Assembly (NCBI GenBank): GCA_963806185.1 | Contig: CAWDXE010000006.1 | Coordinates: forward strand, 32,001 to 96,000 | DNA from: an uncultured candidate division Zixibacteria bacterium | GTDB taxonomy: Bacteria; Zixibacteria; MSB-5A5; GN15; FEB-12 | Direction of reading: 5' to 3' | Length of the DNA: 64,000 nucleotides | In this document: one piece after another, positions 1-64,000 of the stretch | Position numbering within the stretch: position 1 is the first letter of the stretch | Layout: the number at the start of each line of letters is the position of its first letter | Position numbers and translations under genes: made by a program | Notes under the pieces: model-generated | Told to the model about the DNA's origin: nothing | Databases searched by the model: none | The model's input: only the letters and a program-made list of their open reading frames with translations

Positions 1-243
1 GGATGTACGGGTGGTGGCGCCTGTTGCGTCAACACGACGGGCAACGTCGATTGCGGTGCCGACGACAACGTCGATATCGGCGACCTGACGGTGCTGATTG
101 ATCACATGTTCATATCGTTTACTCCGCTTTGCTGCATGGCGGAAGCCAATACTGACGACAATGCCGGGATCGATATCTCGGACCTGACCAGACTGATCGA
201 TCATTTGTTCATTTCGTTTTCGCCGCTGGCGACCTGTCCCTGA
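1..243 (+). CDS. 3' end of a protein with a C-terminal Cys-flanked dockerin-like domain (partial, not in ORF track)
   Basis: Frame 1 reads GCTGGGACCVNTTGNVDCGADDNVDIGDLTVLIDHMFISFTPLCCMAEANTDDNAGIDISDLTRLIDHLFISFSPLATCP-stop; duplicated Ca-binding-loop/helix motif. Confidence 0.85.
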   Translation, partial: GCTGGGACCVNTTGNVDCGADDNVDIGDLTVLIDHMFISFTPLCCMAEANTDDNAGIDISDLTRLIDHLFISFSPLATCP

Positions 244-5799: not shown

Positions 5800-5948
5800 T
5801 TCAGTTTTTCCCTTTCGCCTTTTGCGCGGTGACTTCCCGGACTGTAAATGGTTAGTTACCAACGATAACAGTGGGAACCCCGGGATAAGTTCCTGCCACA
5901 GCGGGCATTTGTCGCCAATGTGGATACAAATTTCCGCGAAGATTCTTC

Positions 5949-5977
5949 TTGCATAGCGGCGGGGGCGTCTCTATTTT
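5949..5977 (+). promoter_or_regulatory. possible sigma70 promoter for the FN3 genes
   Basis: TTGCAT-N17-TATTTT; would favour the TTG 6052 start. Confidence 0.4.
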
Positions 5978-6051
5978 CCCTGCGAGCTAAAGGCTGCTAC
6001 TCGCACCTTACTTCTTTTTTTCTGCGTACTGGCTTACAGTTTGGGTTGGGA

Positions 6052-6648
6052 TTGAAAAACATAGCATTTGTTGTGCTGATGCTGTTGAGTCAGCCTGTCT
6101 GGGCGGCTATCTCGACGGTCACCTCGATTACAGTTCGTTGGACGGCGCCGGGCGACGATGGCAAGACGGGTCGCGCGACGACGTATGATTTGCGTTATTC
6201 GAAAACGCCTATCACCGACGCCAACTGGACCAGCGCCACTCAGGCCGTCAGCGAGCCGCGCCCGGCTACCGCGGGCACTGTCCAGTCGTGCACGATCTCA
6301 GGCTTGGTGCCTACCACTACCTATTATTTCCGTCTCAAAACAATCGATGACAGGGGGAATGCTTCGAACCTGTCCAACCAGGCCACTGCGGCCACCTGTG
6401 GCGGAAGCTGCACCGGTGTGGTCGGCAATTGCGATTGTAGTGCTGATGGGTCGGTCGATATCCTCGATCTGTCGGTGCTGACAGCGTATCTCTTTCAAAA
6501 CGTACAGCCCACTTGTTGGTGCATCTATGAAGCCAACATCGATAACTCCGCTCCGACCGCCTCGGGGCCGACCATCGACATCAACGATCTGACCATGTTT
6601 ATCGATTACCTCTTCGGTAGGTTCACACCGCTGCAGACTTGTAAGTAG
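6052..6648 (+). CDS. secreted FN3 plus Cys-flanked dockerin-like protein
   Basis: Signal peptide from TTG 6052 (ORF track starts 5920); WTAPGDDG FN3 module; dockerin at 6397-6648 (GNCDCSADGSVDILDL...EANID...DINDLT...LQTCK). Confidence 0.8.
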   Translation: MKNIAFVVLMLLSQPVWAAISTVTSITVRWTAPGDDGKTGRATTYDLRYSKTPITDANWTSATQAVSEPRPATAGTVQSCTISGLVPTTTYYFRLKTIDDRGNASNLSNQATAATCGGSCTGVVGNCDCSADGSVDILDLSVLTAYLFQNVQPTCWCIYEANIDNSAPTASGPTIDINDLTMFIDYLFGRFTPLQTCK

Positions 6649-6774: not shown

Positions 6775-9153
6775 TTGGGCCCGGCATTTGTATTAATGCC
6801 ACCCGATTGTCTCGAAAAGGAGTGGCTTAAAAGGAGATTTCTCCATGGATTATCGCCGAATTTTCTCCAACATGGAAGCTTTCCCCCGATTCACGGTTTG
6901 TCCCGCATATTCACATTGTTAGTGCTTGGCGTCATCTGTGCCTCCACCGTGACGGCGGCGCCCAACTCGGTCGTCCTCACCTGGACGGCTCCGGGTGATG
7001 ACGGCAACACCGGCACGGCAACGACCTACGACATCCGGTATTCGACTGCGACGATCACCGCCGCCAACTGGGCCTCGGCGACGCAGGTCACCGGTGAAAC
7101 CGCGCCGAAGGTCGCGGGCAGTGCCGAGAGCTTTACCGTCAACAACCTCACCCCGAGCACGACATACTATTTCGCCATCAAGGCAGCCGATGAGGCCGGC
7201 AACTGGTCGACCCTCTCCAACATCATCACCAAGAGCACGACCGCCGAAACCACGCCGCCGTCGGCCGTCGCAAACCTGACCACCAACGCTTCTACCAACA
7301 GCTCCGTTTCCCTCACCTGGAGTTCACCGGGTGACGACGGCAGCTCCGGTACGGCGACTACCTACGACATCCGGTATTCGACTGCGACGATCACCGACGC
7401 CAACTGGGCGTCGGCGACTCAGGCAACCGGTGAGACGGCACCAAAGGTCAGCGGCAGCACGGAAACATTTGTAATCACCGGCCTGAACCCGAGTACCACC
7501 TATTATTTTGCTATCAAGACAGCTGACGAAGTGCCCAACTGGTCGGCTCTCTCCAACGTCACCAGCCGCGCTACTTCCGCCGAGTCCACAGCGCCGTCGG
7601 CCGTAGCCAATCTCGGCGCCGGCAGTGAAACGGTAAGTTCTGTTACGCTTACCTGGACCTCGCCTGGCGATGACGGCAACACCGGCACGGCGACCACGTA
7701 CGATGTCCGCTACTCGACAGCCTCGATCACTGCCGCCAACTTTGCCAGTGCCACCGCGGCGACTGGCGAACCGGCTCCTAAGGTGGCGGGCAGTGCCGAG
7801 ACATTTGTCGTCAGCGGCCTCAATTCGAATGCCCTGTACTACTTTGCCGTTAAGACGGCCGATGAAGTTCCGAACTGGTCCAGCATCTCCAACGTCGTCA
7901 CTCGCACGACGTTGACGGAAACGACTGCACCGTCGGCGGTGACCTCGCTGGCGACTGTCAGTGTGACGTCGAACGCCGTGACCCTTTCCTGGACAGCGCC
8001 GGGTGACGACGCCAGTACCGGTACGGCGACCACCTATGACCTTCGTTATTCTACGTCAAATATCACCGCCGGCAATTTTGCCAGTGCCACGCAGGTGACC
8101 GGCGAACCGGCGCCGAAGGCCGCCGGCGGTTCCGAGACCTTCACCGTCACCGGCCTTAGTATCAGTACGACGTATTACTTCGCGCTGAAGACGGCTGACG
8201 AGGTCCCCAACTGGTCGAGCATGTCCAATGTACCTTCAGCGACTACGCAGGGTGACGTCACTCCGCCGTCGCCGATTCTCGACCTTGGCGCGGTTGAGGG
8301 TACGGCCGCAGGTGAAGTGATCCTCGGTTGGACCGCTCCCGGCGATGACGGCAATACCGGCACGGCCCGTTTCTACCTGATAAAGTATGCCACCGACAGC
8401 ATCACGCCGGAGTCCTGGGTGACCGCGGACATTTTCAATGATCCGCCGTCCCCGGTACAGGCCGGCGAGCATCAGTCAGTCTCATTGTACGGTCTGGTGC
8501 CGGCGCAAAAGTATTATGTCGCGATGGAGGCGTATGACGAAAACGCCTATCCGTCAGGCATGTCAAACGTCGCGTCGGCCGTGGCCGGCGAGGGCATTGT
8601 AGCTAACTCTGACTCCGGCGAGATCAAGATGGTCTCGCCTGCGAATCAGGTGTTGCACAGTTCCCGCCCGATTCTGAAGATTGAGAATATCGACACGGCC
8701 AACACCAATGACTACACCTTTGCCGTGTCCGCCGATTCCACCTTTGAGTCGGTGGTGTCAATGGCCACTGTCGTCGAAGAACTCGGCAGCACAACGTGCT
8801 GGGAAGTGCCGGTTCGGTTGACTCCGAATCAGCTCTACTTCTGGCGGGTCGACGCCGAGCCGGGCGGCGCCAGTGCCATTGCCTCGTTCATGGTACAACC
8901 GACCACGCACGTTTACCCCAACCCCTACAAGGCGTCCACTGGGAGCTCGGCGACCTTCGCCGAGGTCCCCACTGGATCGCAGATAACGATCACCTCGGTC
9001 TCCGGCGAAACTGTACGGCAGTTCGCCAGCATCGAAAGCGATCAAGTGGCATGGGATGGATTAAACGACTCGGGCAGTCCGGTTGCGTCGGGTGTCTATC
9101 TCTGGTATCTCGATGGTGGCAGTGCCAAGGGGAAAATTGTCGTCACTCGCTGA
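6775..9153 (+). CDS. surface protein with five FN3 (WTAPGDDG-type) repeats and a FlgD-Ig/T9SS-like C-terminal domain; true start uncertain
   Basis: W(T/S)(A/S)PGDD motifs at 6982, 7318, 7654, 7990, 8329; C-terminal VYPNP...WDGLNDSGSPVASGVY...GKIVVTR. Confidence 0.85.
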   Translation: MGPAFVLMPPDCLEKEWLKRRFLHGLSPNFLQHGSFPPIHGLSRIFTLLVLGVICASTVTAAPNSVVLTWTAPGDDGNTGTATTYDIRYSTATITAANWASATQVTGETAPKVAGSAESFTVNNLTPSTTYYFAIKAADEAGNWSTLSNIITKSTTAETTPPSAVANLTTNASTNSSVSLTWSSPGDDGSSGTATTYDIRYSTATITDANWASATQATGETAPKVSGSTETFVITGLNPSTTYYFAIKTADEVPNWSALSNVTSRATSAESTAPSAVANLGAGSETVSSVTLTWTSPGDDGNTGTATTYDVRYSTASITAANFASATAATGEPAPKVAGSAETFVVSGLNSNALYYFAVKTADEVPNWSSISNVVTRTTLTETTAPSAVTSLATVSVTSNAVTLSWTAPGDDASTGTATTYDLRYSTSNITAGNFASATQVTGEPAPKAAGGSETFTVTGLSISTTYYFALKTADEVPNWSSMSNVPSATTQGDVTPPSPILDLGAVEGTAAGEVILGWTAPGDDGNTGTARFYLIKYATDSITPESWVTADIFNDPPSPVQAGEHQSVSLYGLVPAQKYYVAMEAYDENAYPSGMSNVASAVAGEGIVANSDSGEIKMVSPANQVLHSSRPILKIENIDTANTNDYTFAVSADSTFESVVSMATVVEELGSTTCWEVPVRLTPNQLYFWRVDAEPGGASAIASFMVQPTTHVYPNPYKASTGSSATFAEVPTGSQITITSVSGETVRQFASIESDQVAWDGLNDSGSPVASGVYLWYLDGGSAKGKIVVTR
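6982..8600 (+). repeat. intragenic tandem FN3 repeats, 336-nt period
   Basis: Spacings 336, 336, 336, 339 nt; identical 37-mer at 7024-7060 and 7360-7396. Confidence 0.85.
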
Positions 9154-41822: not shown

Positions 41823-43856
41823 TTACGGACAGGCCGGCAACGGCCGGAAGCTGAGAAACAGATGATCCACCATCGCCGTAAGATCCTGAATATCCAGATT
41901 CAGGGGCCAGTCACCGTCGATATTCGCCTCCGCCGGACAGGTCGAAGGTCGAACTGAAATATACAGGTCATCAACCAACTGCTGCAAGTCGGCAATGTCG
42001 ACGGTGTTCAGGGAATCCTCATCGATGTTCCCCACCGTCCCCACACAACAGACCGCCGCGTTGCGATAGAAATCCAGTCCGCCGTCCTCTTCCCCGATGA
42101 GCAGATCACTGTCGCTATCCCCGTCCAGATCAGCAAGAAGCAACGCGAGCCGCGAGCCTTCATCCGATCCCGGGATCTTGTCGGATTGCGCTACTAATGT
42201 CAGGGAATCGGGAAAGCCGCTGACCGAGATGTTGCGAAACCAGGTTACACCGCTCACCGCCGAACCCAGGAGCAGATCCTTGCGGCCGTCGTGGTCCCAG
42301 TCTACAACCGTCGGTATAGTGAACTCGCGGGGAGCCTGTCGAAGTAGTCGCGAAGTCCTAAGACGGAGTACGGGCGCTTCGGCCGTCCCGGTGTTCTCAT
42401 ACAGCAGCACATTCGCCTGGCCGTTGAAATCCCATTCTCCGACCACCAAATCGATCCGGGCGTCGCCGTCAAAATCCATCGGCACCGGCACCGCCAATTG
42501 ATCCACGCGGATCGATCCCAGCGAGTCGGTGACGAGGGTGGGAATGAATGCACTTTTCGAACCGTCGTTGCGATAGTAAACAATTCGACCATTGAGATTC
42601 CCTACCAGCAGGTCCAGGTCGCCGTCGTTATCCCAGTCAACCAGCGCGGGAGCCGCATCGTAGCCGACATTAATATCTGCAAACGCCGTGTCTACCAGAT
42701 CAAGCATCGGTTTGGATGCCGTACCGGTGTTCTCCATGTACGCCAGCGCCCCGTTCTGTCCTCCTACCAGCAGGTCGATGTCGCCATCGTCGTCAAGATC
42801 GCCCGCCGTCGGCATTGACGCCGACCCAACGTCGATGGTCTTCAGATACTGCGAATCCGCCTGCACGTAATTCGGCGCCTGCAGCGTGCCGTCATTGCGG
42901 TACAACCGAAGCGTATACAAGTCTGCCACATTCGCCACTCCGGACAGCATCTCCGCCTTCCCGTCGCCATCAAGATCGCCAAAACTTACATGATTGAACC
43001 CCAGCGTCGGACTGGGTAGAAAGAACTCCGTCAGCCAGGTCAGATCGGAGTGAAATCGATCGCCCTCATTCCGAAAACAGTACAGGCTGTTGCTGAAAAT
43101 GTCTCCCCAGAACAGATCGTAGTCGCCGTCAGTGTCGTAGTCGGAGAACGTGATGCTGTTGAACCCGTGCAGTGGATTGTCCCCCCGATTCGGGCCTCGC
43201 CCTCCGGACGGCGATGGCCCACCCCCAGGAATTGCCAGCACACTGTCATACACGTCGGTGACGAACGTGAATATCGGCTCCTGCGGTGTCCCGATATTGC
43301 GATAGAAATTGAGATTCCCGCCGATCCCGCCCAGAAAGAAGTCGAGATCGCCATCGGCGTCGATATCCACAAACGCCGGCGTGATGTTGGTCGTGGTGGT
43401 CAGACCGCCAAAGACAGAATCAACCAGATCAAAGATCACTTCTCCCGGTATGGAACTGTTGCGATAGAACCTGGCGTGGCCGTGCCGCGAATCGCAGAGA
43501 AGGTCAACGTCGCCGTCGCCATCAATATCACTGAGCGTGTACCAGGTGCCGATATCGATTCCACCCAGCCGCCCGCTCTGCACTTGCCACTTTGCTTGTT
43601 GGGTCGTGCCCACATTCCTCAGATATAAGAGTCGCCCTTCAAACTGGCCGATCAACAGGTCGAGCCGTCCGTCGTTGTCGAGATCGACCAGTTCCGGTTT
43701 GGGGTTGTTGAGCCCGCCCAAAAAGGGAAGGTCAAGCAGAGATCCGTGATCACGCACAGGAAACGGCGTGTATTCGCGGACGAATTGCCCGCTCGCCCCG
43801 GCTGAAAGACCGAGACTCAACGCCGGAAACACTATGACACGAACTAGTAGATGCAT
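41823..43856 (-). CDS. secreted FG-GAP/VCBS-repeat protein with a C-terminal Cys-flanked dockerin-like domain
   Basis: Signal peptide; about ten DxDxDGxxDL repeats; dockerin at 41823-42050. Confidence 0.88.
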   Translation of the reverse strand: MHLLVRVIVFPALSLGLSAGASGQFVREYTPFPVRDHGSLLDLPFLGGLNNPKPELVDLDNDGRLDLLIGQFEGRLLYLRNVGTTQQAKWQVQSGRLGGIDIGTWYTLSDIDGDGDVDLLCDSRHGHARFYRNSSIPGEVIFDLVDSVFGGLTTTTNITPAFVDIDADGDLDFFLGGIGGNLNFYRNIGTPQEPIFTFVTDVYDSVLAIPGGGPSPSGGRGPNRGDNPLHGFNSITFSDYDTDGDYDLFWGDIFSNSLYCFRNEGDRFHSDLTWLTEFFLPSPTLGFNHVSFGDLDGDGKAEMLSGVANVADLYTLRLYRNDGTLQAPNYVQADSQYLKTIDVGSASMPTAGDLDDDGDIDLLVGGQNGALAYMENTGTASKPMLDLVDTAFADINVGYDAAPALVDWDNDGDLDLLVGNLNGRIVYYRNDGSKSAFIPTLVTDSLGSIRVDQLAVPVPMDFDGDARIDLVVGEWDFNGQANVLLYENTGTAEAPVLRLRTSRLLRQAPREFTIPTVVDWDHDGRKDLLLGSAVSGVTWFRNISVSGFPDSLTLVAQSDKIPGSDEGSRLALLLADLDGDSDSDLLIGEEDGGLDFYRNAAVCCVGTVGNIDEDSLNTVDIADLQQLVDDLYISVRPSTCPAEANIDGDWPLNLDIQDLTAMVDHLFLSFRPLPACP

Positions 43857-53484: not shown

Positions 53485-54531
53485 ATGACAACTATACCCC
53501 CTAATCCCAAGATGCTTCAGGATGCGCTCCTGCTTGCTGAGACTATTCTGACGGATATCGAGTTAAGCCAGATTGTTCTCACAAAAATTGCCATGAAAGC
53601 AAGTCGTTTGGCGAGGTTGTTAAGCGACCATCCGTATCAAGAGATCTTTTTTTACGAGGCTTCGGGTTACCCTACAACTCCAACTGGGATTCCACCCGAA
53701 ATATTTGAACTCTGTCGGCTTGCGGGACGCATGGTTGAGGAGGAGGATGCCAAGTCGCATCAGATCACTACAAAAGCATATACCGACTCGATCGAGGCAA
53801 TTGAGATTTCTCTCGACACTCTATCCAAGTCTATTGAATCTGCAGTTGATCCGAACGTTTCGATCACGTCTGCTAACCCTAGTCAGTACGTAATGTCTCC
53901 GACGGGAAATCGATACGAGAGGGGCGCGTTGCGTACTCAGATTGGCCAGACTGCTCGTCGATTATCGAGTCGCCGAGCGTTTATTTATGATTATGTCTCG
54001 ATGAGATACATTGAACTCAAATATTCCCAACTTGCATATGATCTTTTCTCAGCCCTACGGATACGAGTTGATTCGCTACTTACCGAGCTATTGCCGCAAT
54101 CGATAACTAAGCTATCGTCTATCTATGACAATCTCGTTTCACCTAATCCTGAAGATTGGTCCAACGCCGCTCATTCGTGCCGTAAGGTTCTTCAAGATCT
54201 AGCGGATGTTGTGCTCCCGGCCACGACGGAGACGAGGACAATCGATCGAAATGGTAAGAGGCAAACCATCTCTCTCGGACCAGATCAGTACAAAAACCGG
54301 CTAATGGTCTACGTTTCAGACAATTCCGATTCAGAAACATATGAAGGAATTGTTGGATCAACTCTAGAGTTCATAGGTGATCGATTAGACGCCATCCTGA
54401 AGGGTGCCCAGAAGGGTTCACGTGGTACAATCTCGAAAGAGGAAGCCGAAAGGTATGTGGTACACACCTATATGCTGGTGGGTGACATTCTGTTTCTCTT
54501 TCAATCGAAGAGAACCCCGCCATCCTTGTAA
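53485..54531 (+). CDS. AbiTii-like domain protein (putative defence gene)
   Basis: N-terminal ILTDIEL...KASRLARLL...YEASGY resembles AbiTii-type N-termini (from recall); visibly AT-richer than neighbours. Confidence 0.55.
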   Translation: MTTIPPNPKMLQDALLLAETILTDIELSQIVLTKIAMKASRLARLLSDHPYQEIFFYEASGYPTTPTGIPPEIFELCRLAGRMVEEEDAKSHQITTKAYTDSIEAIEISLDTLSKSIESAVDPNVSITSANPSQYVMSPTGNRYERGALRTQIGQTARRLSSRRAFIYDYVSMRYIELKYSQLAYDLFSALRIRVDSLLTELLPQSITKLSSIYDNLVSPNPEDWSNAAHSCRKVLQDLADVVLPATTETRTIDRNGKRQTISLGPDQYKNRLMVYVSDNSDSETYEGIVGSTLEFIGDRLDAILKGAQKGSRGTISKEEAERYVVHTYMLVGDILFLFQSKRTPPSL

Positions 54532-54623: not shown

Positions 54624-54650
54624 CTGGATTCCCGCCTTCGCGGGAATGAC
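54624..54650 (-). repeat. REP-like palindrome
   Basis: Minus strand GTCATTCCCGC-GAAG-GCGGGAATCCAG. Confidence 0.7.
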
Positions 54651-54688
54651 ATCGTTGGCAGTTCTCAGTAAACTCGACGCCCCATACC

Positions 54689-54740: not shown

Positions 54741-57700
54741 CTACTTGAGGAGCACCATCTTCTTGGTGGCGCTATACGCACCAGCCGTCAAACGATAGAA
54801 GTAGATACCCGAAGCATATCTACCGGCATCCCACACCACTTGGTAATATCCGGGCTGGTCCTCACCCTCAAACGCGTTCACCGTCTGACCCAGGATATTG
54901 TATATCTCCAGCCGCCACTTGCCCGCTTCGGGCAGTGCGAAATCTATCTTCGTCTGAGGATTGAACGGGTTCGGATAGTTCTGCGACAAGCTGTACGCCG
55001 TCGGCAGATTCGACAGCTTCGTCGCCACCACCAGACCGTCCGCCGAACCGATGTCGACGCTCTTCACCGCTGCCGTGTCCGCTCAGCGTCAGCAGCTCGC
55101 CGGTTTCAATCGCACCCTTGCCGGTGGAACTGAACACCAGGATGCGCGTCACCTTGCCGTCGAAGCTGTATTGCAGCTCCATGTCCTTCGCCGCGGAGCC
55201 AAGGACCGGCTTAACGTCACCCTCGACCACCACCTGCACGCCGCCTATTCGCGTGTTGCAGTCGCTGATGCGCAAGGCATCGCCGGAGACCGCCACGGTC
55301 GCCTCGTAGCCGGCGTTGGGATTGAGTTTCTCGTACGGCGAGGCATCGCCCACCACCACGCGGATCAGGTACACCAGGTCTCCGACCGTCAGCGGTATGC
55401 CGTCCGCATTCACGTCCGAAGCCGCTATTGCGCCCTTCAATCCGAACGTTGGCGGGATACACGTCGGGCAATCCTGCGGGAAAGCGCTCAGCCCCTTGAT
55501 GAAATACTGAGTGAACATGACCACGTCGGCGATTTCGTACGCCAGATCATTCAGGTTGATATCACCGCGCGCGTCGATGGAATCAGCGCAGACGATATCG
55601 ATGCCGCCGTTGGTGAAATCGACACACCGCTGCGGCAACCCCTTGCCGCCGGGGATCAGGCAGCTATTCGGCGCGCCGAAGTAACTCGGCATCGGGTACG
55701 AATTGTCGGTGATGTTATGCAGTTCGAGATCGAACACGTTGCGCGAAATCCAGAGCGTATCGCCGCCCTTGCTCGACAAGGCGTTGTCACCACACTCGAG
55801 CCAGAAGAAGCTCACCGGCGCGTACTGGCACTCGAGCGACCGATCATTCGACACCAGGAAGTCTATCGTCGCCATCGTCCCTACCTGACCGTCAAAGAAA
55901 CAGCTCGGATGGTACGCTCCGTTGTTCGTCTCAGCGATACCGGCGATACGCAGCAGCCCGCTCGGACAGCCGTCGCCGCAGTTGCCGTCGGCGCCGTACC
56001 GAAGGTGAAGTACTCCCAGCCGCAACCTTCAAAGAGCGAACCGGGCGTCACCGTGTAGGGGGTCAGAGCCGTCGCGTCATACGCGATCAGGAAACTGAAT
56101 CCGCCGAGCGGCTTGCCCGAACCGTTCAGGAAGATATCGACCAGTGAATGCTGCCCCTGGAATGCGTCGTGAACCTTCTCGATCTGCACGTGTATGCATT
56201 CGTCGATCTGGACTTTGACACAGATCGTATCCTTGTCGATCAAGCCGCATTGATCGGTCGCGGTCAGTTCAAGACAATAGGTTCCGGTCGTGTCGGCGTT
56301 GAAACAGACCTGGCCGTTCGCATACGTTCCGAGCGGCGATACGGTCACGCTACCAACATTGAGGTCCGGATCATTCACCGTGATGTCAAAGCAGACCTCG
56401 CCCACTGCTTCAAGATAGGCCGTGAAGTCGGGCAGAGGTGTAATCACCGGCGCGGCATTGAAGTTGACCGTCACCACCGACGTGTCATAGTCCACCGCTC
56501 CGCAGGCGTCCGTCGCCTTGAGTATAAACTGGTAAACCTTGTCCGATCCGTCGCCGTTGGGCGCCGTCAGGCAGATCTTCCCGGTATTACTGTCATACGT
56601 GCCGAACGGCGAAAGCAATTCGCACGTCGACAGATTGTTGTCCTCGTCGGTACAGCCCGCGGTGATACAGACACTCGCGGTGCCGCAGGCGAAGACCGTC
56701 GTATCGCGACCGGCATTGGCCACCGGCGCGGCATTCAGATTGATCTTCACGAAGAACGAATCAATGCACGACGCGCCGCACGAGTCACTGCACTGCACTT
56801 TCACCTTCACCAGTTGATCGACCGTCGGCGTGAAGACCCAGTTGCCGCCCACCAGCGATCCCGGCCCGGCCAGCAACTCGCAATGTGAGAAATTGCCGTT
56901 CGGATCGGTCGCCCCGACCGGAATGGTGATCTGTGTCGGAGTGCACTGGAATACAACGGTTGTGTCGGCCGGGGGCATCTGGCAGACCGGCGGCGTGTTG
57001 AGCGCGATCGTGATGACTACCGTATCCTGGTCCGCCACACCGCAATGGTCCACTGCCCGGGTGATGAACGTGTAGGTCCCGGACGAACCCGGCGTGAAGC
57101 AAATCTGCCCGCCCGCATATGTGCCCGGGCCACTGATCAACTTGCAGCTATCCAGATTATTGTCGGGATCGGTGCACGACGCCGGCCAGCACACCTGCGT
57201 CGGCGTGCACAGCTTCAGCGACTGATCCGGGCCGGCGTTGGCCACCGGCGGCCGATTCTGCAGTACGTTCACCGTAATCGTATCCGCGTCACCCGCGCCA
57301 CAGGCGTCTGTGGCAAGCACAATTATCTGATGTACGCCCGCGCCGATTGGCGTGAAGCAATACGGGCTGACGGCATTGGTATCCGCCACCGTGCCGTCAA
57401 GCTTCACGAATCGAATCGAAATATTGTTATTGGCGTCAGTGATCGTGAACGGTATGCACACCGGACCGGTCGCACACTGGAACACCGTCGTGTCGGCGCC
57501 AAGTGTCACCACCGGCGCGCTATTGACTGTCACATTGTAGGTCGCCGTGATCGTGTCGGCCTTGCCGCACGAATCAGCCACCGCTGCCGTCACTGTGTAC
57601 GTTCCGGCGGCGCTGATCGTGAAGCACCATTGCCCCGACGCGCTCACGGTTCCGCTGCCCGTCAGTCTCGACCAGGTCAGCCCGTTGCCGTCCGGATCGG

Positions 57701-60700
57701 TCGCCGCGAGTTGGCGACACACCTGTCCACCGGTCGCGCACACGAAGGTATCGACAGGCGTCACCTCGGTCGCCACCGGCGCCCGGTCGATCTGGACATT
57801 CACTTCAAGGTCGCAGGTATCGGCGCCGCAAGCACTGGTCGCGATGACGCGCAATACATAGTGTCCGGTCGTATCGGCCGTGAAGCAGACGTCACCACTA
57901 TTGTACGTACCGATCGGCGACACTGTGACCGTCCCGCCGCCCATCACACCGACCGGGATACATACCTGGCCGGCCGAGCAGAGGAACTTTGACGTCACAC
58001 CCGGGCAACTCAACTGCGGCACGCTGCCGATGGTCACGTTGAACGTCACCTGGCAGGTGTCTGCGCCGCACGAGGTGGTGGCAATTACCGTCGCTGTGTA
58101 GGTTCCCGACACCGCGGCGTCGAAACAAAGCTGGCCGCCACTATAGGTACCAAGCGTCGTCGTCACCGTGGCTGTGCTCGGTGTTATCTCAAGTGTCTGG
58201 CACACCGGCCCCGCCGCGCACAACGATACCGCTATCGGACCGCTCGGGCAGGCTATGTCGGCCCCTTGACCGGTCGTCACAGTTATAACTACGGTATCCT
58301 GATCACTACCACCGCACGAATCGACCACACCGACGATAAACTGGTAGCTGCCCGCGCCGCTCGGCGTGAAGCAAATTTCGTTGGTCGCTGTGTTGATGGA
58401 TCCGAATCCGGAAATCATCGTTTCCGTCAGGCCGCTCGTCCCGTCGGCATCGCTCACATTGTAGTTTAAGCAGATCGGCGACAATGTGCACTGGAACACG
58501 GCGCTGTCGGCCGGCAACGTCACCACCGGTACCGAGTTCAACACCACAGTCACTGTGACCGTGTCGTCAGCCTCAAGACCACAGGCATCTTCCACGTGGA
58601 GGACAAAGACATAACTGCCCGACGCATTCGGCGTGAAGCAAATCTGCGAACCGTTGAATGTACCCGGCCCGCTGAAATCACACACATTCTGATTGTTATC
58701 CGGGTCGGTACAGGCTGCCGGCAGGCATATTTGCGTCGGCGTGCACTGGAAGACATTGGTGTCCGCGGGTAATACCGCTACCGGCGCCTGATTGACCGTC
58801 ACAACCGCATCAATCGTGTCCGCTGCCGTGGCGCCGCAATTATCCGTGATCGTCAGGATGAAATGATACGTCCCGGTCGTATCGGCGTTGAAACAGACCT
58901 GCGAATTGGCCAGGTCGAGCGTCCCGCCGCCCGCCAGCGTGATGACCGGCGTTGGGCTGTCATTGTCCGTCGCCGTGAACTGGAGACAGACCTGCTGCGG
59001 TCCGCACAGGAAGAACGGGTTGTACGATGCAAATTCAATGGTCGGCTTCGAGTTGATGCGGAAATCAACCGTGAAGCTCTCCGTGCAAGTCGCTCCGCAT
59101 GAATCAGTGCACTGAATGCCGACCGTCACGACCTGGCTCTGGGCCGACGGCGTGTAGCACCAATTGCCGCCCGTCAGCATACCCGGCCCCGATGTAATTT
59201 CGCACGACAGCAGGTTGTTATCGGTGGCATACGCCGGCAGGCAGACCTGCGTCGGCGTGCACTGGTAAATGACCGTGTCATTCGGCACGACGCAGACCGG
59301 CGCCGCGTTGAGCGTGATATATATCACTGATGTGTCAACGTCGGTCTTGCCGCAGGCGTCGATGGCTTCGAGAATGAACGTGTAGGTTCCCGACGTCGAC
59401 GGAGTGAAACAGATTTGCGATCCGTCAAACGACCCCGGCCCCGCGATCAGGTTGGTCGCCGTCAGATTGCCATTCACATCCGAACTGCCGGCCACCCAGC
59501 AAATCGCCTGTGGCGCGCAGAGCACAACAGTCGAATCGCGACCGGCGTTGGCCACCGGCGCGCTGTTGTGCGTGTAATAGATCACGACCGTGTCGTAGCT
59601 GATCAGACCGCAGGCGTCGGTCGCCTTCAGCACAAACTCATAATTGAGCGTTCCGGTCGGCGTGAAGCAAATCTGGCCGCCGCTGTATGTACCGGGGCTG
59701 TTCACCAGCTGAACAGTGGTGAGATTGCCGTCGGGATCGGTCGCGCCCGCCGGCCAGCAGATTTGCTGTATTTCACACTGGAATATTGTCTGATCCGGCC
59801 CGGCGTTGACCACCGGCGCCCGATTCAGAGTCACTGTCACTCTAAGCGTGTCAACCGCTGTCGCACCGCACGAATCCAGCGCTTGCGCGACAAGCGTGTA
59901 TACTCCGGCCACCGTCGGCGTGAAGCAAAGCTGACCGGCGTTTAGTGTTCCTGAACCGGAAAGCAGCGTCACCGCCTGCAGGTTTCCGTTGGCGTCACTA
60001 ACCGTGTATGGCAGACAGATCTGCGCCGCGGCACACTGGAAGAGCGATGTGTCATTGGCCAGCGTCAGTACCGGCACGGCGTTGATCGTTACATTATATG
60101 TCACAGTAACGGTATCCGCCGCCCCGCATGAATCAGCTACCTGCGCGACGACACTGTATGCACCCGAGCCGGCCGGCGTGAAGCACCACTGACCGTCCGC
60201 CGCCACTGATCCGGCGCCGGAGATTCGACTCCAGGTCAGCGTTCCGCCATTCACATCCGCAGCGGAGAAACTGTAGCACACCTGAGTCGCCACACACTGG
60301 AAGACATTCACCGGTGTCGTCGGATTCACGGCCACCGGCGCGCTGTTGCGCGTTACCGTCGTCGATACATAGCACGTATCCGCGCTGCAACCCGTTCCTG
60401 CAATAACGCGAATCACATAGGTACCGCTCGTGTCGGCCGTGAAACAGAGTTGACCCGCACTATAACTGCCAATCGGCGAAACAGTCACTGTCGCACTCGC
60501 CGGCGTCACTGTCACCGGCCGGCAGAGCGAGGTCGGCGCGCAGATGAAATAGCTCGCCGCCGGCGGACAGGTCACATCGGCAAATTCGCCGAAGGTCACT
60601 GTCACGTGTACCGTATCGCGGGCCGTCACACCGCAGGAATCGCTCACCTGGGCGATAAAGGAGTAGGTGCCACCGGTGCTTGGTGTGAAGCAAATCTGAT

Positions 60701-63700
60701 TGCCGCTAATCGTACCGCTGCCGGAGATGAGTGTTACCGACTGAATATTGTTATTCGGATCGCTGGTCACGAAGCTCCGGCAAATCTGTGCCGGGGTGCA
60801 GAGATTGACCGTGGTGTCGCCGGCGATAGTGATACTCGGCGCACCGTTTATGACTATGTCATAGGACAACGATACCGTGTCGGCGGCGCCGCACGAATCG
60901 GCCACCTGGGCCACGACACTGTAGGTACCGGTTCCCGTCGGCGTGAAGCACCAGTTACCGCTTGTACTCACCGAACCCGAACCGGACAGCCGCGTCCAGG
61001 TCAAGGTGCCACCGTTGATATCGGTCGCTGTAAACTGCGTGCACACCTCCGTCGGCGTGCACTGGAAGATTGTCGCGGGCAAGCGCGGATTGGCCGCCAC
61101 CGGCGCTGAATTGATGGTTACATGCGCCGTAATGAAGCAGGAGTCGGTGCCGCACGGCGTCGACGCCTTCACCTTCAGAATATAGGTGCCCGACGTATCA
61201 GCCGGGCAGATCACATTGCCGCCCACATACGACCCGATCGGCGTCACCGTATAGGTCGCCACCGGCGCTCCACCCACGGCGATACACAAACTGCCCGGCC
61301 CGCAGATGAATATCGTCTGCTCCGGCGGGCAAACCAGCACCGGCGGCTGGCTCACGGTCACATTAAACGTGATGTCGCAGGTATCCGCGCCGCACTCGGC
61401 CGTCGCGATCACGCGAGCCGTGTATGTGCCCGAGGCCGGTGCATTGAAACAAAGTTGACCGCCGCTGAACGTACCCAGCGTCGTCGTCACCGTCGCATTC
61501 GCCGGTGTGATCGTCAACGCCTGGCAGATCTGGCCGCCGGCGCACTCCGTGATGTTAATCGGTCCGGTCGGACAATCGATCACCGCCACCGGGCCGAAGG
61601 TCACGGTTACGTTGACCGTATCTCTGGCTGACAGACCGCACGAGTCGCTCACTTGAACGATGAATTGATACGACCCGGCGCTGCTCGGAGTGAAACAAAC
61701 CTTGTTGTTGACGGCGTCAAGCGTGCCATACCCCGAAATAAGCGTCTTGGTCAAACCGCTCGAGCCATTAGGATCGGAAACCGTAAAACTCCGGCAAATC
61801 TCGACCGGCGTACACAGATGTACGGTCGTGTCGTTGGCGAGGGTAAGCGACGGTGCACTGTTTACGGTCACATTGTATGTCAGGTTGACCGTATCTTTGG
61901 CGCCGCACGAATCCGCAACTACCGCGCTCACCGCGTAGTTCCCATTACCCGCCGGCGTGAAACACCACTGCCCGCCGGCTGAAACCGTGCCGGTCCCGCT
62001 CAGTTTACTCCAGGTCAGCGTTCCGCCATTGACATCCGCGGCTGTAAAGGTGTAGCAAATCTGGGCCGGCACACACTGGAAGACACTCACCGGCGTCGGC
62101 GGATTCACCGCCACCGGCGCGCTGTTCTTCGTTACCGTTGTCGTGACAAAGCAGGTGTCGGCACTGCATCCGGTCGTTGCAATTACGCGCAGCACATACG
62201 TGCCGCTCGTGTCGGCGGCGAAGCAGACGTTACCGGCACTGTAGGTACCGATCGGCGATATCGTCACCGTGGCACTTGCCGGTGTCACCGTCACCGGACG
62301 GCAGATCGACGTCGGGGCGCAAATGAAGTAGGCCGCGCTCGACGGACACGTGACGTCGGCATACTGCCCCATCGTCACGGTCACGACTACCGTATCAAGA
62401 TCGTACGCGCCGCACGAATCCGTCACTGATGTGACAATCTGGTAGGTCCCGCTCGCACTCGGGGTGAAACACACCGTGTTGGCCGCCGTGTCAATCGCAC
62501 CAAAGCCGGAAACCAGTACCTCGGTCAGCTTGCTTGTCCCATTCGGATCGCTGACTGCATAGCTCCGGCAAATCTGAGTCGGTGCACACAGGAAGATCGT
62601 CGTGTCATTCGCCAGCGTGATCGTCGGTGCGCCGTTCAGGGTGACATTGTAGGTGAGCGTTGTCGTATCCTTGGCGCCGCAGGAATCGGCGACCACCGCC
62701 GTTATTGCATAGGCTCCCGACGACGCCGGCGTGAAGCACCATTGCCCGCCGCTGGTGAGCGTCCCGGTCCCCGTGAGTTTCGTCCAGCTCAACGTGCCGC
62801 CATTGACATCGCTGGCCGCAAAGGTGTAGCACACCTGGGCGGGAGTGCATTGAATGAGATTTACCGGCGTGGTCGGATTGACCGCTACCGGCGCAGAGTT
62901 CAGAGTGACTGTATAGCTGATTGAGGTAGTATCTTTGGCGCCACACGAATCGGACACCACGGCCGTTACCGCATAAGTCCCGGAAATCGTCGGCGTGAAA
63001 CAGAACTGACCGCCCGACGTCACTGTCCCCGACCCGGCCAGCTTTGTCCAACTGAGCGTCCCGCCATTGGGATCGGCCGCCGTGAAGTTGTAGCAGATTT
63101 GCGCCGAGGCACACTGGAAAACCGTCTGGTTCGGCGGATTCACGGCCACGGGAGCTGCATTGAGCCCGATCGTCACCACCACCGTATCCAGATCGACGGC
63201 GTTACACGAGTCGGTCACCTTGATGACAAATGTCGAGGCGCCCGCCGCCCCGGGTGTATAGCAAATCTGATTGCCGGCAAGCGTCCCCGGCCCCGACAGC
63301 AATTGCGTCGACTTTATATTGTTGTCCGGATCGGTGAAACTGACCGGGAAACAAACCTGCCCGAGTGAGCAGAGGAATTTCGTGAAATCGGCCCCGGCGT
63401 TGGCCACCGGCGGGCGATTTATGACCACGGTGACCAGAGTCGTGTCGGCTCCGACATGACCACACTGGTCGGTCGCTGTCACTATCACCGTGTAGACGCC
63501 GGCCGTGTCGGCCGTGAAGCAAACGTCACTACTGGTCGATGACGGCGCCGTGCGCGCACCAAAGCCGTCGATTTCGATTACCCCTGATGTGCACTTGATG
63601 TATACCTGGTTGAACGGCAGACCGTCCGGCAGATCGAACGCAACTCCACCCGTTCCGGATCCGCTCGTACCGCCGGGAACGGTTCCCGTGAACGAATACA

Positions 63701-63998
63701 CCACGGTCCCGCTCAACTTGAACTGCAGGAGAGCTGTGCCGCCGCCGTCGCTGTTGGAGAAAATGACAAAATCACTGTTGGAGCCGTTGCATGTCCTGAT
63801 CGTGCTTGAGAATCCAACCGTCACATAGTTTCCGCTCGAAAAATCAACCGAGCCGTCACCCAATCCGCCATCAGGGCCACCTGCACCCGGCAACGTGAAG
63901 GTCAAATCAGTCGGCACCCCCTTGAGTTGATCGGCCGATTGCGCCGGGCCGACGCCCGACGGGAACGATCCGTAACTGACAATGGAGCTCACGAACAC
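54741..63998 (-). CDS. giant (>3000 aa, 5'-truncated) Cys-rich Ig/cadherin-like repeat protein with cohesin-like, dockerin and T9SS type-A-like CTD; frameshifts near 56001 and 55068
   Basis: Three ORFs join as WEYFTF|RYGADG and GHGS|VKSVD; about 28 repeats of 80-90 aa; GGFSFLIAYD cohesin-like motif; RGDINLN...SDVNADG dockerin; LSQNYPNPFNP...YFYRL...KKMVLLK. Confidence 0.85.
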
Positions 63999-64000
63999 AA

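Follow-up and report, generated by a model that had tools for sequence, protein, structure and literature searches.

A giant repeat protein of an uncultured Zixibacteria bacterium as a possible structural post of a phylum-wide, non-cellulolytic cohesin-dockerin surface assembly

The window analyzed here, a 64,000-nucleotide stretch of an uncultured Zixibacteria genome (G000:C6:32001-96000, where G000 is this genome; 3.65 Mb in 8 contigs, 82% complete), carries the gene of a giant repeat protein of ~3,440 amino acids (aa), which starts 1,063 bases past the window end. Our tentative reading is that this stalk serves as one of the structural posts in a cohesin-dockerin surface assembly found across the phylum, which would probably use two separate pairings. 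The tail of the giant protein contains, in this order, a large cohesin-fold domain, an internal dockerin-like module, a compact second cohesin-fold domain and a C-terminal domain (CTD) of the type IX secretion system (T9SS), and three other proteins encoded in the window end in a dockerin tag:

56199..64000, minus strand: Cys-rich stalk of Ig/cadherin/PKD-like repeats, the bulk of the giant protein (Pfam scan)
55591..56198, minus strand: large cohesin-fold domain of ~200 aa with Cys-rich insertions (fold from a paralog model)
55342..55572, minus strand: internal dockerin-like module, two calcium-loop-like repeats with a helix after each (motifs; low model confidence)
55011..55311, minus strand: compact second cohesin-fold domain of ~100 aa (predicted model)
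54741..55010, minus strand: T9SS type A CTD (Pfam Por_Secre_tail and TIGR04183)
22..243, plus strand: dockerin tag at the C-terminus of a protein whose family is unknown and which starts upstream of the window (tag profile)
6409..6648, plus strand: dockerin tag at the C-terminus of the FN3 protein encoded by ORF 5920-6648 (Pfam and tag profile)
41823..42050, minus strand: dockerin tag at the C-terminus of the FG-GAP propeller protein encoded by ORF 41823-43856 (Pfam and tag profile)

The CTD of the giant protein scored above the cut-off for both Por_Secre_tail (43.9 bits) and TIGR04183 (47.2 bits), and its N-terminus, read by eye, resembles a signal peptide, which together are the marks of a T9SS type A substrate. 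No CBM was found in the Pfam scans of this protein. An earlier note on this DNA had placed a cohesin-like domain, a dockerin and a T9SS tail here and had guessed at a Zixibacteria-like organism; all three modules were located in that region, and the named homologs of the C-terminal region come mostly from Zixibacteria/GN15. Family models recognized the cassette in part. The T9SS tail was above cut-off, but the large cohesin reached 14.4 bits against Pfam PF00963, on its N-half (cut-off 24.1, E 0.045), and the internal dockerin had no match in the Pfam scan of the giant protein. A genome-wide PF00963 search gave 7 matches, which did not include the cohesin locus of the giant protein. The internal dockerin contains two calcium-loop repeats with Asp/Asn residues and is highly conserved; it is distinct from the C-terminal tags, to whose family it aligned with an hhalign probability of 80 (E 1.4e-5).

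Comparison with an intact paralog on contig C1 (73% DNA identity over 1,466 columns) showed that the giant gene has lost one base at ~56001, interrupting the large cohesin, and carries one surplus base at ~55072-55075, in the compact cohesin. The surplus base near 55075 was absent from one 364-base relative contig of low depth; no contig spanned the site near 56001. Further cohesin loci of the same assembly are broken likewise, so both single-base frameshifts are likely to be assembly errors. A search of sequencing runs listed two of DNA, with small shares, and none of RNA.

Folds were predicted on an intact paralog encoded in this genome, with 73-89% identity in the individual modules, whose 487-aa tail was modeled from a 72-row alignment (pLDDT 84, pTM 0.55). 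In this model the large cohesin (residues 4-208) superposed on a type I cohesin with Z 17.1 and an rmsd of 2.0 Å over 142 of 144 residues. Its top 20 structural matches all bear cohesins, the next unrelated one has Z 10.5, and Foldseek agreed on a cohesin (E 8e-9), so that on the paralog model the stretch 55600-56200 folds as the note had proposed. Around 60 residues go beyond known cohesins, in the form of Cys-rich insertions. The compact domain, modeled together with the dockerin, is a second predicted cohesin fold (Z 11.4, rmsd 2.3 Å, 101 residues; the first 19 matches are cohesins), with no sequence similarity to known cohesins. PDB matches of the cohesin models include A. cellulolyticus ScaB/ScaC, C. 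thermocellum CipA/OlpA and R. flavefaciens ScaC, and superposition on solved cohesins indicates the nine-stranded jelly-roll in the predicted domains. In profile comparisons the compact cohesin had no similarity to the large cohesins or to the small ones described below, and the large and small profiles reached a probability of only 5.6; such comparisons are uninformative, since the folds match anyway. The internal dockerin was modeled with its motifs and helices present at poor confidence (pLDDT 40-79), and no dockerin fold appeared among the structural matches of this poorly modeled module. In the single-chain model of the paralog the modules were not packed against one another with confidence (pTM 0.55, dockerin pLDDT 46-79); the low dockerin confidence may be due to missing calcium instead of pairing in trans.

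A search profile built up from the three tags of the window gave 101 matches in 94 ORFs of this genome, 88 of them C-terminal, so that the three dockerin-like ends singled out earlier belong to one family, at a scale beyond what the window reveals. Pfam Dockerin_1 (PF00404) had 36 matches in the genome, 21 of them above the cut-off, and the three window tags taken singly fall below it. The tag repeats are symmetric, two calcium-loop/helix units in a 74-row alignment, and in the PDB the weak matches of the profile (6 sequences, E 0.003-0.065) were all to chains that bear a dockerin. With two calcium-loop/helix repeats and homology to PF00404, the tags are dockerins as judged from sequence. Pfam also confirmed the two full-length tagged proteins of the window as FN3 and FG-GAP proteins. 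Right after the FN3-tag gene lies a gene for a multi-FN3 protein with a weak FlgD/CHU_C-like tail (6775-9153, plus strand); the two have similar bodies, one with a CTD-like end and the other with a tag.

The cargo scan covered 86 of the 92 tagged ORFs of at least 100 aa. Thirteen encode peptidases (seven S8; M1, M6, M12, M28, M64 and C10), others carry propellers, C-type lectins, FG-GAP, PKD, FN3, TSP3 or lamin-tail domains and one is CBM9-like, while 46 had no family at the thresholds used. No glycoside hydrolase was found among the 86 (E 1e-8/1e-6), nor in 36 further proteins scanned (E 1e-12), in keeping with the non-cellulolytic cargo expected beforehand. Given that no glycoside hydrolase cargo was seen, the putative surface system is not a cellulosome.

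Cohesin-fold candidates in the genome comprise nine loci of the large type, eight compact domains and nine domains of a small type. The small cohesins are a separate family, which includes proteins made up of no more than a signal peptide, a cohesin and a CTD; many relatives of the small cohesin-CTD protein were found, at 41-54% identity. One protein of 257 aa carries both a small-type cohesin and a tag and could be regarded as an adaptor. No stand-alone compact cohesin-CTD protein of 104-333 aa was found among 102 candidates, a result that is not evidence of absence. A cluster at G000:C6:174000-199000 (L006, L036, L037) combines cassette, small-cohesin, CTD and tagged genes, including one for a tagged Ig-repeat protein of 3,037 aa. 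Elsewhere, G000:C4:237217-238044 (minus strand) encodes a signal peptide and a large cohesin alone, with no dockerin or CTD and with the strand motif described below decayed.

The genome census of export functions found 45 T9SS tails above cut-off, SprA and 10 PorV-family matches above cut-off. A C25 protein of 1,142 aa, encoded directly before a PorV-family gene, appears to be PorU-like from its C25 domain, size and neighbor, so that a translocon, a shuttle and a putative sortase are all represented. GldM, searched in 1 genome, and GldN and GldL, searched in 11 genomes, gave no match, as did the positive controls; the T9SS possibly uses another energy source. Two secretins are also present and leave an alternative export route open. 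Tag and CTD were found together on one of 140 ORFs (94 tagged, 47 with a CTD). Three tagged paralogs share ~400 aa with a cassette protein at 44-47% identity, and their tag sits exactly at the position of the cassette.

Cassette architecture was surveyed in 120 homologs, which were picked by likeness to the cassette, so the following block counts are inflated. The exact cohesin-dockerin-compact cohesin-CTD layout occurs in 96 of the 120; measured between profile matches, 144 of 157 large cohesins have a dockerin 6-13 residues behind them, and 137 of 148 dockerins are followed by a compact cohesin. Four of the 120 end in a tag in place of the CTD, and in some the block is repeated two to three times, giving up to six cohesin folds. 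Strands 3, 5 and 6 of the large cohesin are nearly invariant, as is the internal dockerin; we take these strands to be the binding face, as in clostridial complexes. When six proteins from this genome were added to the 120 homologs, median retention of the strand 3/5/6 motif was 93% in 148 cohesins followed by a dockerin and 36% in 15 others, which are few and related, six of them looking like one family. The contrast holds between sibling domains of one protein. Two truly free cohesins retain the motif (P0009, P0043), and two or three further motif-keeping "free" ones seem to carry a degenerate dockerin. Because the motif is kept with a dockerin and decayed without one, the internal dockerin is a likelier partner of the large cohesin than the tags are, and the tags likely use other cohesins.

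Under the two-pairing reading, CTD proteins would be exported by Sec and then by a T9SS-like passage. The large cohesin would take up the internal dockerin found in the cassette family; given the short linker between the two, this dockerin would probably belong to a neighboring molecule, so that the eight or so cassette proteins would be cross-linked. In a second pair, the ~90 tags, which sit on peptidases as well as on propellers, lectins and proteins of unknown kind, would bind other CTD-bearing cohesins, with the small signal peptide-cohesin-CTD proteins, and possibly also the compact cohesin, as sockets. Tagged peptidases and adhesins would be captured before or after export, and if the tags bind CTD-bearing cohesins the tag would replace the CTD as the means of surface display. 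With so short a linker and so loose a single-chain model, pairing between molecules is weakly favored. The self-chaining imagined in the earlier note draws some support from the link between motif and dockerin, although cis and trans pairing are indistinguishable in these data.

Pairing in cis is at the center of a rather unlikely alternative, in which the internal dockerin docks onto the large cohesin of the cassette to which it belongs or, as in an X-dockerin dyad, onto the compact cohesin. The cassette would then act as a rigid, calcium-stabilized spacer above the CTD, no more than one of its sockets would be free, and the tags would use other cohesins. The fixed order and spacing of the cassette and the extreme, joint conservation of cohesin and dockerin agree with such an arrangement, as do proteins in which the dockerin-compact cohesin pair is duplicated without the large cohesin (P0046, P0068, C2:3572), and the loss of the motif without a dockerin fits cis as well as trans. 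However, just 6-13 residues link the profile matches, and a paired 72-row alignment did not yield a confident compact model.

The tag profile matched 145 of 151 genomes of the phylum, with at least 38 matches in most. Among 59 chosen genomes, the searches detected the large cohesin in 45 and a Pfam cohesin in 56; SprA was present in all 28 relatives tested. Two genomes (G066 and G090) had no detectable dockerin or cohesin; both kept SprA and had 122 and 139 CTDs, respectively. In G068 and G078 a single-protein search had missed the large cohesin, which a profile search then detected.

CTD density was compared in 69 genomes from 19 families, hand-chosen to include all 17 with at most six tag matches and 52 others. 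In the four dockerin-poorest families (14 genomes) the density ranged from 27 up to 51 or more CTDs per Mb, against 10-22 in the other 55 genomes, so that T9SS tails are two to three times more numerous in the former. The pattern, which is based on capped counts, is two-state, with a correlation across the 19 families that is not significant (rho -0.34, p 0.16), and the dockerin-poor, CTD-rich state may represent a single evolutionary event. A graded trade-off between dockerins and CTDs was discarded, as rho, which was -0.70 for an initial set of 28 genomes, weakened to -0.39 once all 69 were included and was +0.17 within the 55 tag-bearing ones. In a bolder scenario, which we consider distinctly unlikely, the dockerin would have taken over from the CTD the role of sorting the secretome in most Zixibacteria; tagged cargo would fold in the periplasm, attach there to small cohesin-CTD adaptors and be carried by them through a T9SS without the known motor onto a stalk mesh cross-linked by a second, orthogonal pair.

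One genome on a single contig (G138, 96% complete) speaks against a simple version of the two pairings: it has 35 tags, but the queries used detected neither a cassette cohesin nor a small cohesin in it, and its sole candidate is a weak one, a lipoprotein. A small cohesin-CTD protein is present in the related genome G105. Loci L054 (G105) and L055 (G138) encode lipoprotein-like proteins in which what appear by eye to be repeated cohesin-type domains are followed by leucine-rich repeats, and these could be an alternative anchor in this genus, whose tags come without a cassette cohesin. The ESM Atlas also contains unnamed clusters of cohesins/dockerins, most often from Planctomycetota, which offer a lead.

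The earlier note had proposed that the large cohesin is itself the socket for tagged cargo, with the CTD-exported stalk as a scaffold. In such a model the stalk would keep the cargo at a distance from the cell, in the manner of an anchoring scaffoldin. The cohesin fold and the T9SS-like genes agree with this proposal, but the role of the large cohesin as tag socket is doubtful: its motif tracks the internal dockerin, separate small cohesins exist, it was not seen in the tag-rich G138 and G105, and family f6 retains it even though the dockerins of that family are not recognized by the tag profile any longer. Several observations nevertheless speak for it, namely that type I enzyme-binding cohesins are the best structural matches, that the symmetry of the tags resembles type I dockerins, that multi-cassette proteins look like scaffoldins, and that strong large-cohesin matches are common in tag-rich families and rare in the four dockerin-poor ones (best E 6e-8 or none). 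Some cohesin-dockerin surface assembly is common to this proposal, to the spacer arrangement and to the two pairings that we tentatively prefer. That the tags are instead calcium-binding C-terminal signals for a non-cohesin receptor (a PorV-family barrel or a secretin), with the cohesin folds as inert Ig-like spacers, is very unlikely, since dockerins and cohesins are jointly absent in G066 and G090, 56 of 59 genomes have Pfam cohesins and genes for cohesin-tag adaptors exist, even though tags outnumber detected cohesin-fold domains ~3 to 1, G138 has tags without a clear cohesin, the genome has 10 PorV-family genes and 2 secretins, and tag and CTD occupy the same slot.

The assembly proposed here is a variant of non-cellulosomal cohesin-dockerin systems, and similar ones have been proposed for Cloacimonadota, Planctomycetes and Chlorobium. 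For Ca. Stygibacter (Cloacimonadota), a CTD-bearing scaffoldin of cohesin repeats and dockerin-bearing enzymes was proposed in silico (PMC8542988). Both systems are computational proposals for diderms, with a scaffoldin-like protein of large size that joins cohesin to a CTD and with dockerins at the C-termini of peptidases and further secreted proteins; tandem cohesins with CBM2/3, GH18/GH57 cargo and restriction to one genus are particular to Ca. Stygibacter (PMC8542988), whereas the system described here has the cohesin-dockerin-compact cohesin block, ~90 tags per genome, occurrence in most of a phylum, no CBM detected in the giant protein and no glycoside hydrolase on the tagged ORFs scanned. 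The planctosome proposed for freshwater Planctomycetes is likewise non-cellulolytic and peptidase-loaded, with a dockerin-cohesin adaptor and lamin-tail proteins in its set (two tagged lamin-tail proteins were found here); it differs in its proposed lamin tail domain anchor, the lack of a T9SS tail and its few components (PMC6461901). Giant Ig-repeat stalks with a modeled cohesin-dockerin link also occur in another diderm of the FCB group, Chlorobium chlorochromatii (Cag_2037/Cag_2038), where one pair is described, with the modules on separate chains and export by a T1SS proposed (bioRxiv 10.64898/2026.03.19.712371).

The system shares with clostridial and ruminococcal cellulosomes the (here predicted) cohesin fold, the duplicated calcium-loop dockerin, adaptors with cohesin and dockerin, and dozens of tagged proteins for few sockets; those cellulosomes differ in being Gram-positive, in their glycoside hydrolase cargo and in cohesins without the ~60-residue Cys-rich insertions. 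They are anchored by SLH domains or sortase. As in T9SS type A cargo of Bacteroidota (PorU, the mirolase CTD), a signal peptide is combined with a CTD of ~80 aa, and SprA, PorV-family and PorU-like genes are present; unlike in Bacteroidota, GldL/GldM/GldN were unmatched here (with silent controls), and most of the secretome carries a dockerin instead of a CTD. The literature searched, mostly without subscription journals, held no paper on Zixibacteria with dockerins, cohesins or T9SS/type IX secretion, and nothing relevant by title on piggyback export. The suspicion that the arrangement was undescribed stands for experiments and for Zixibacteria in that literature, but not for the concept, given the in-silico CTD-bearing scaffoldin of Ca. 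Stygibacter (PMC8542988).

With dozens to more than 100 tagged proteins per genome in most of an uncultured phylum, mainly peptidases and unknown proteins, this would be the largest non-cellulolytic cohesin-dockerin system of a Gram-negative lineage. It could be a source of new disulfide-bearing, possibly orthogonal cohesin-dockerin pairs amenable to in vitro work, and it raises the question of how CTD-less proteins arrive at the surface of a T9SS-bearing cell.

Other features were observed around the giant gene. An AbiTii-domain gene (53485-54531, plus strand; Pfam 38.9 bits), possibly an anti-phage gene by its domain, is convergent with it. Between the two lies a short palindromic repeat (54625-54652), presumably a REP-like element, with nine genome matches at up to two mismatches, counting both strands; contigs from two public metagenomes pile up on it by the thousands. 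A eukaryote-like Ser/Thr kinase gene, identified by eye, is located 4 kb upstream of the giant gene (G000:C6:100853-103543). Finally, a large surface polysaccharide cluster (13522-39056) encodes a flippase, an O-antigen ligase-like protein, three GT1 proteins, deacetylases, a C-methyltransferase and aminotransferases.
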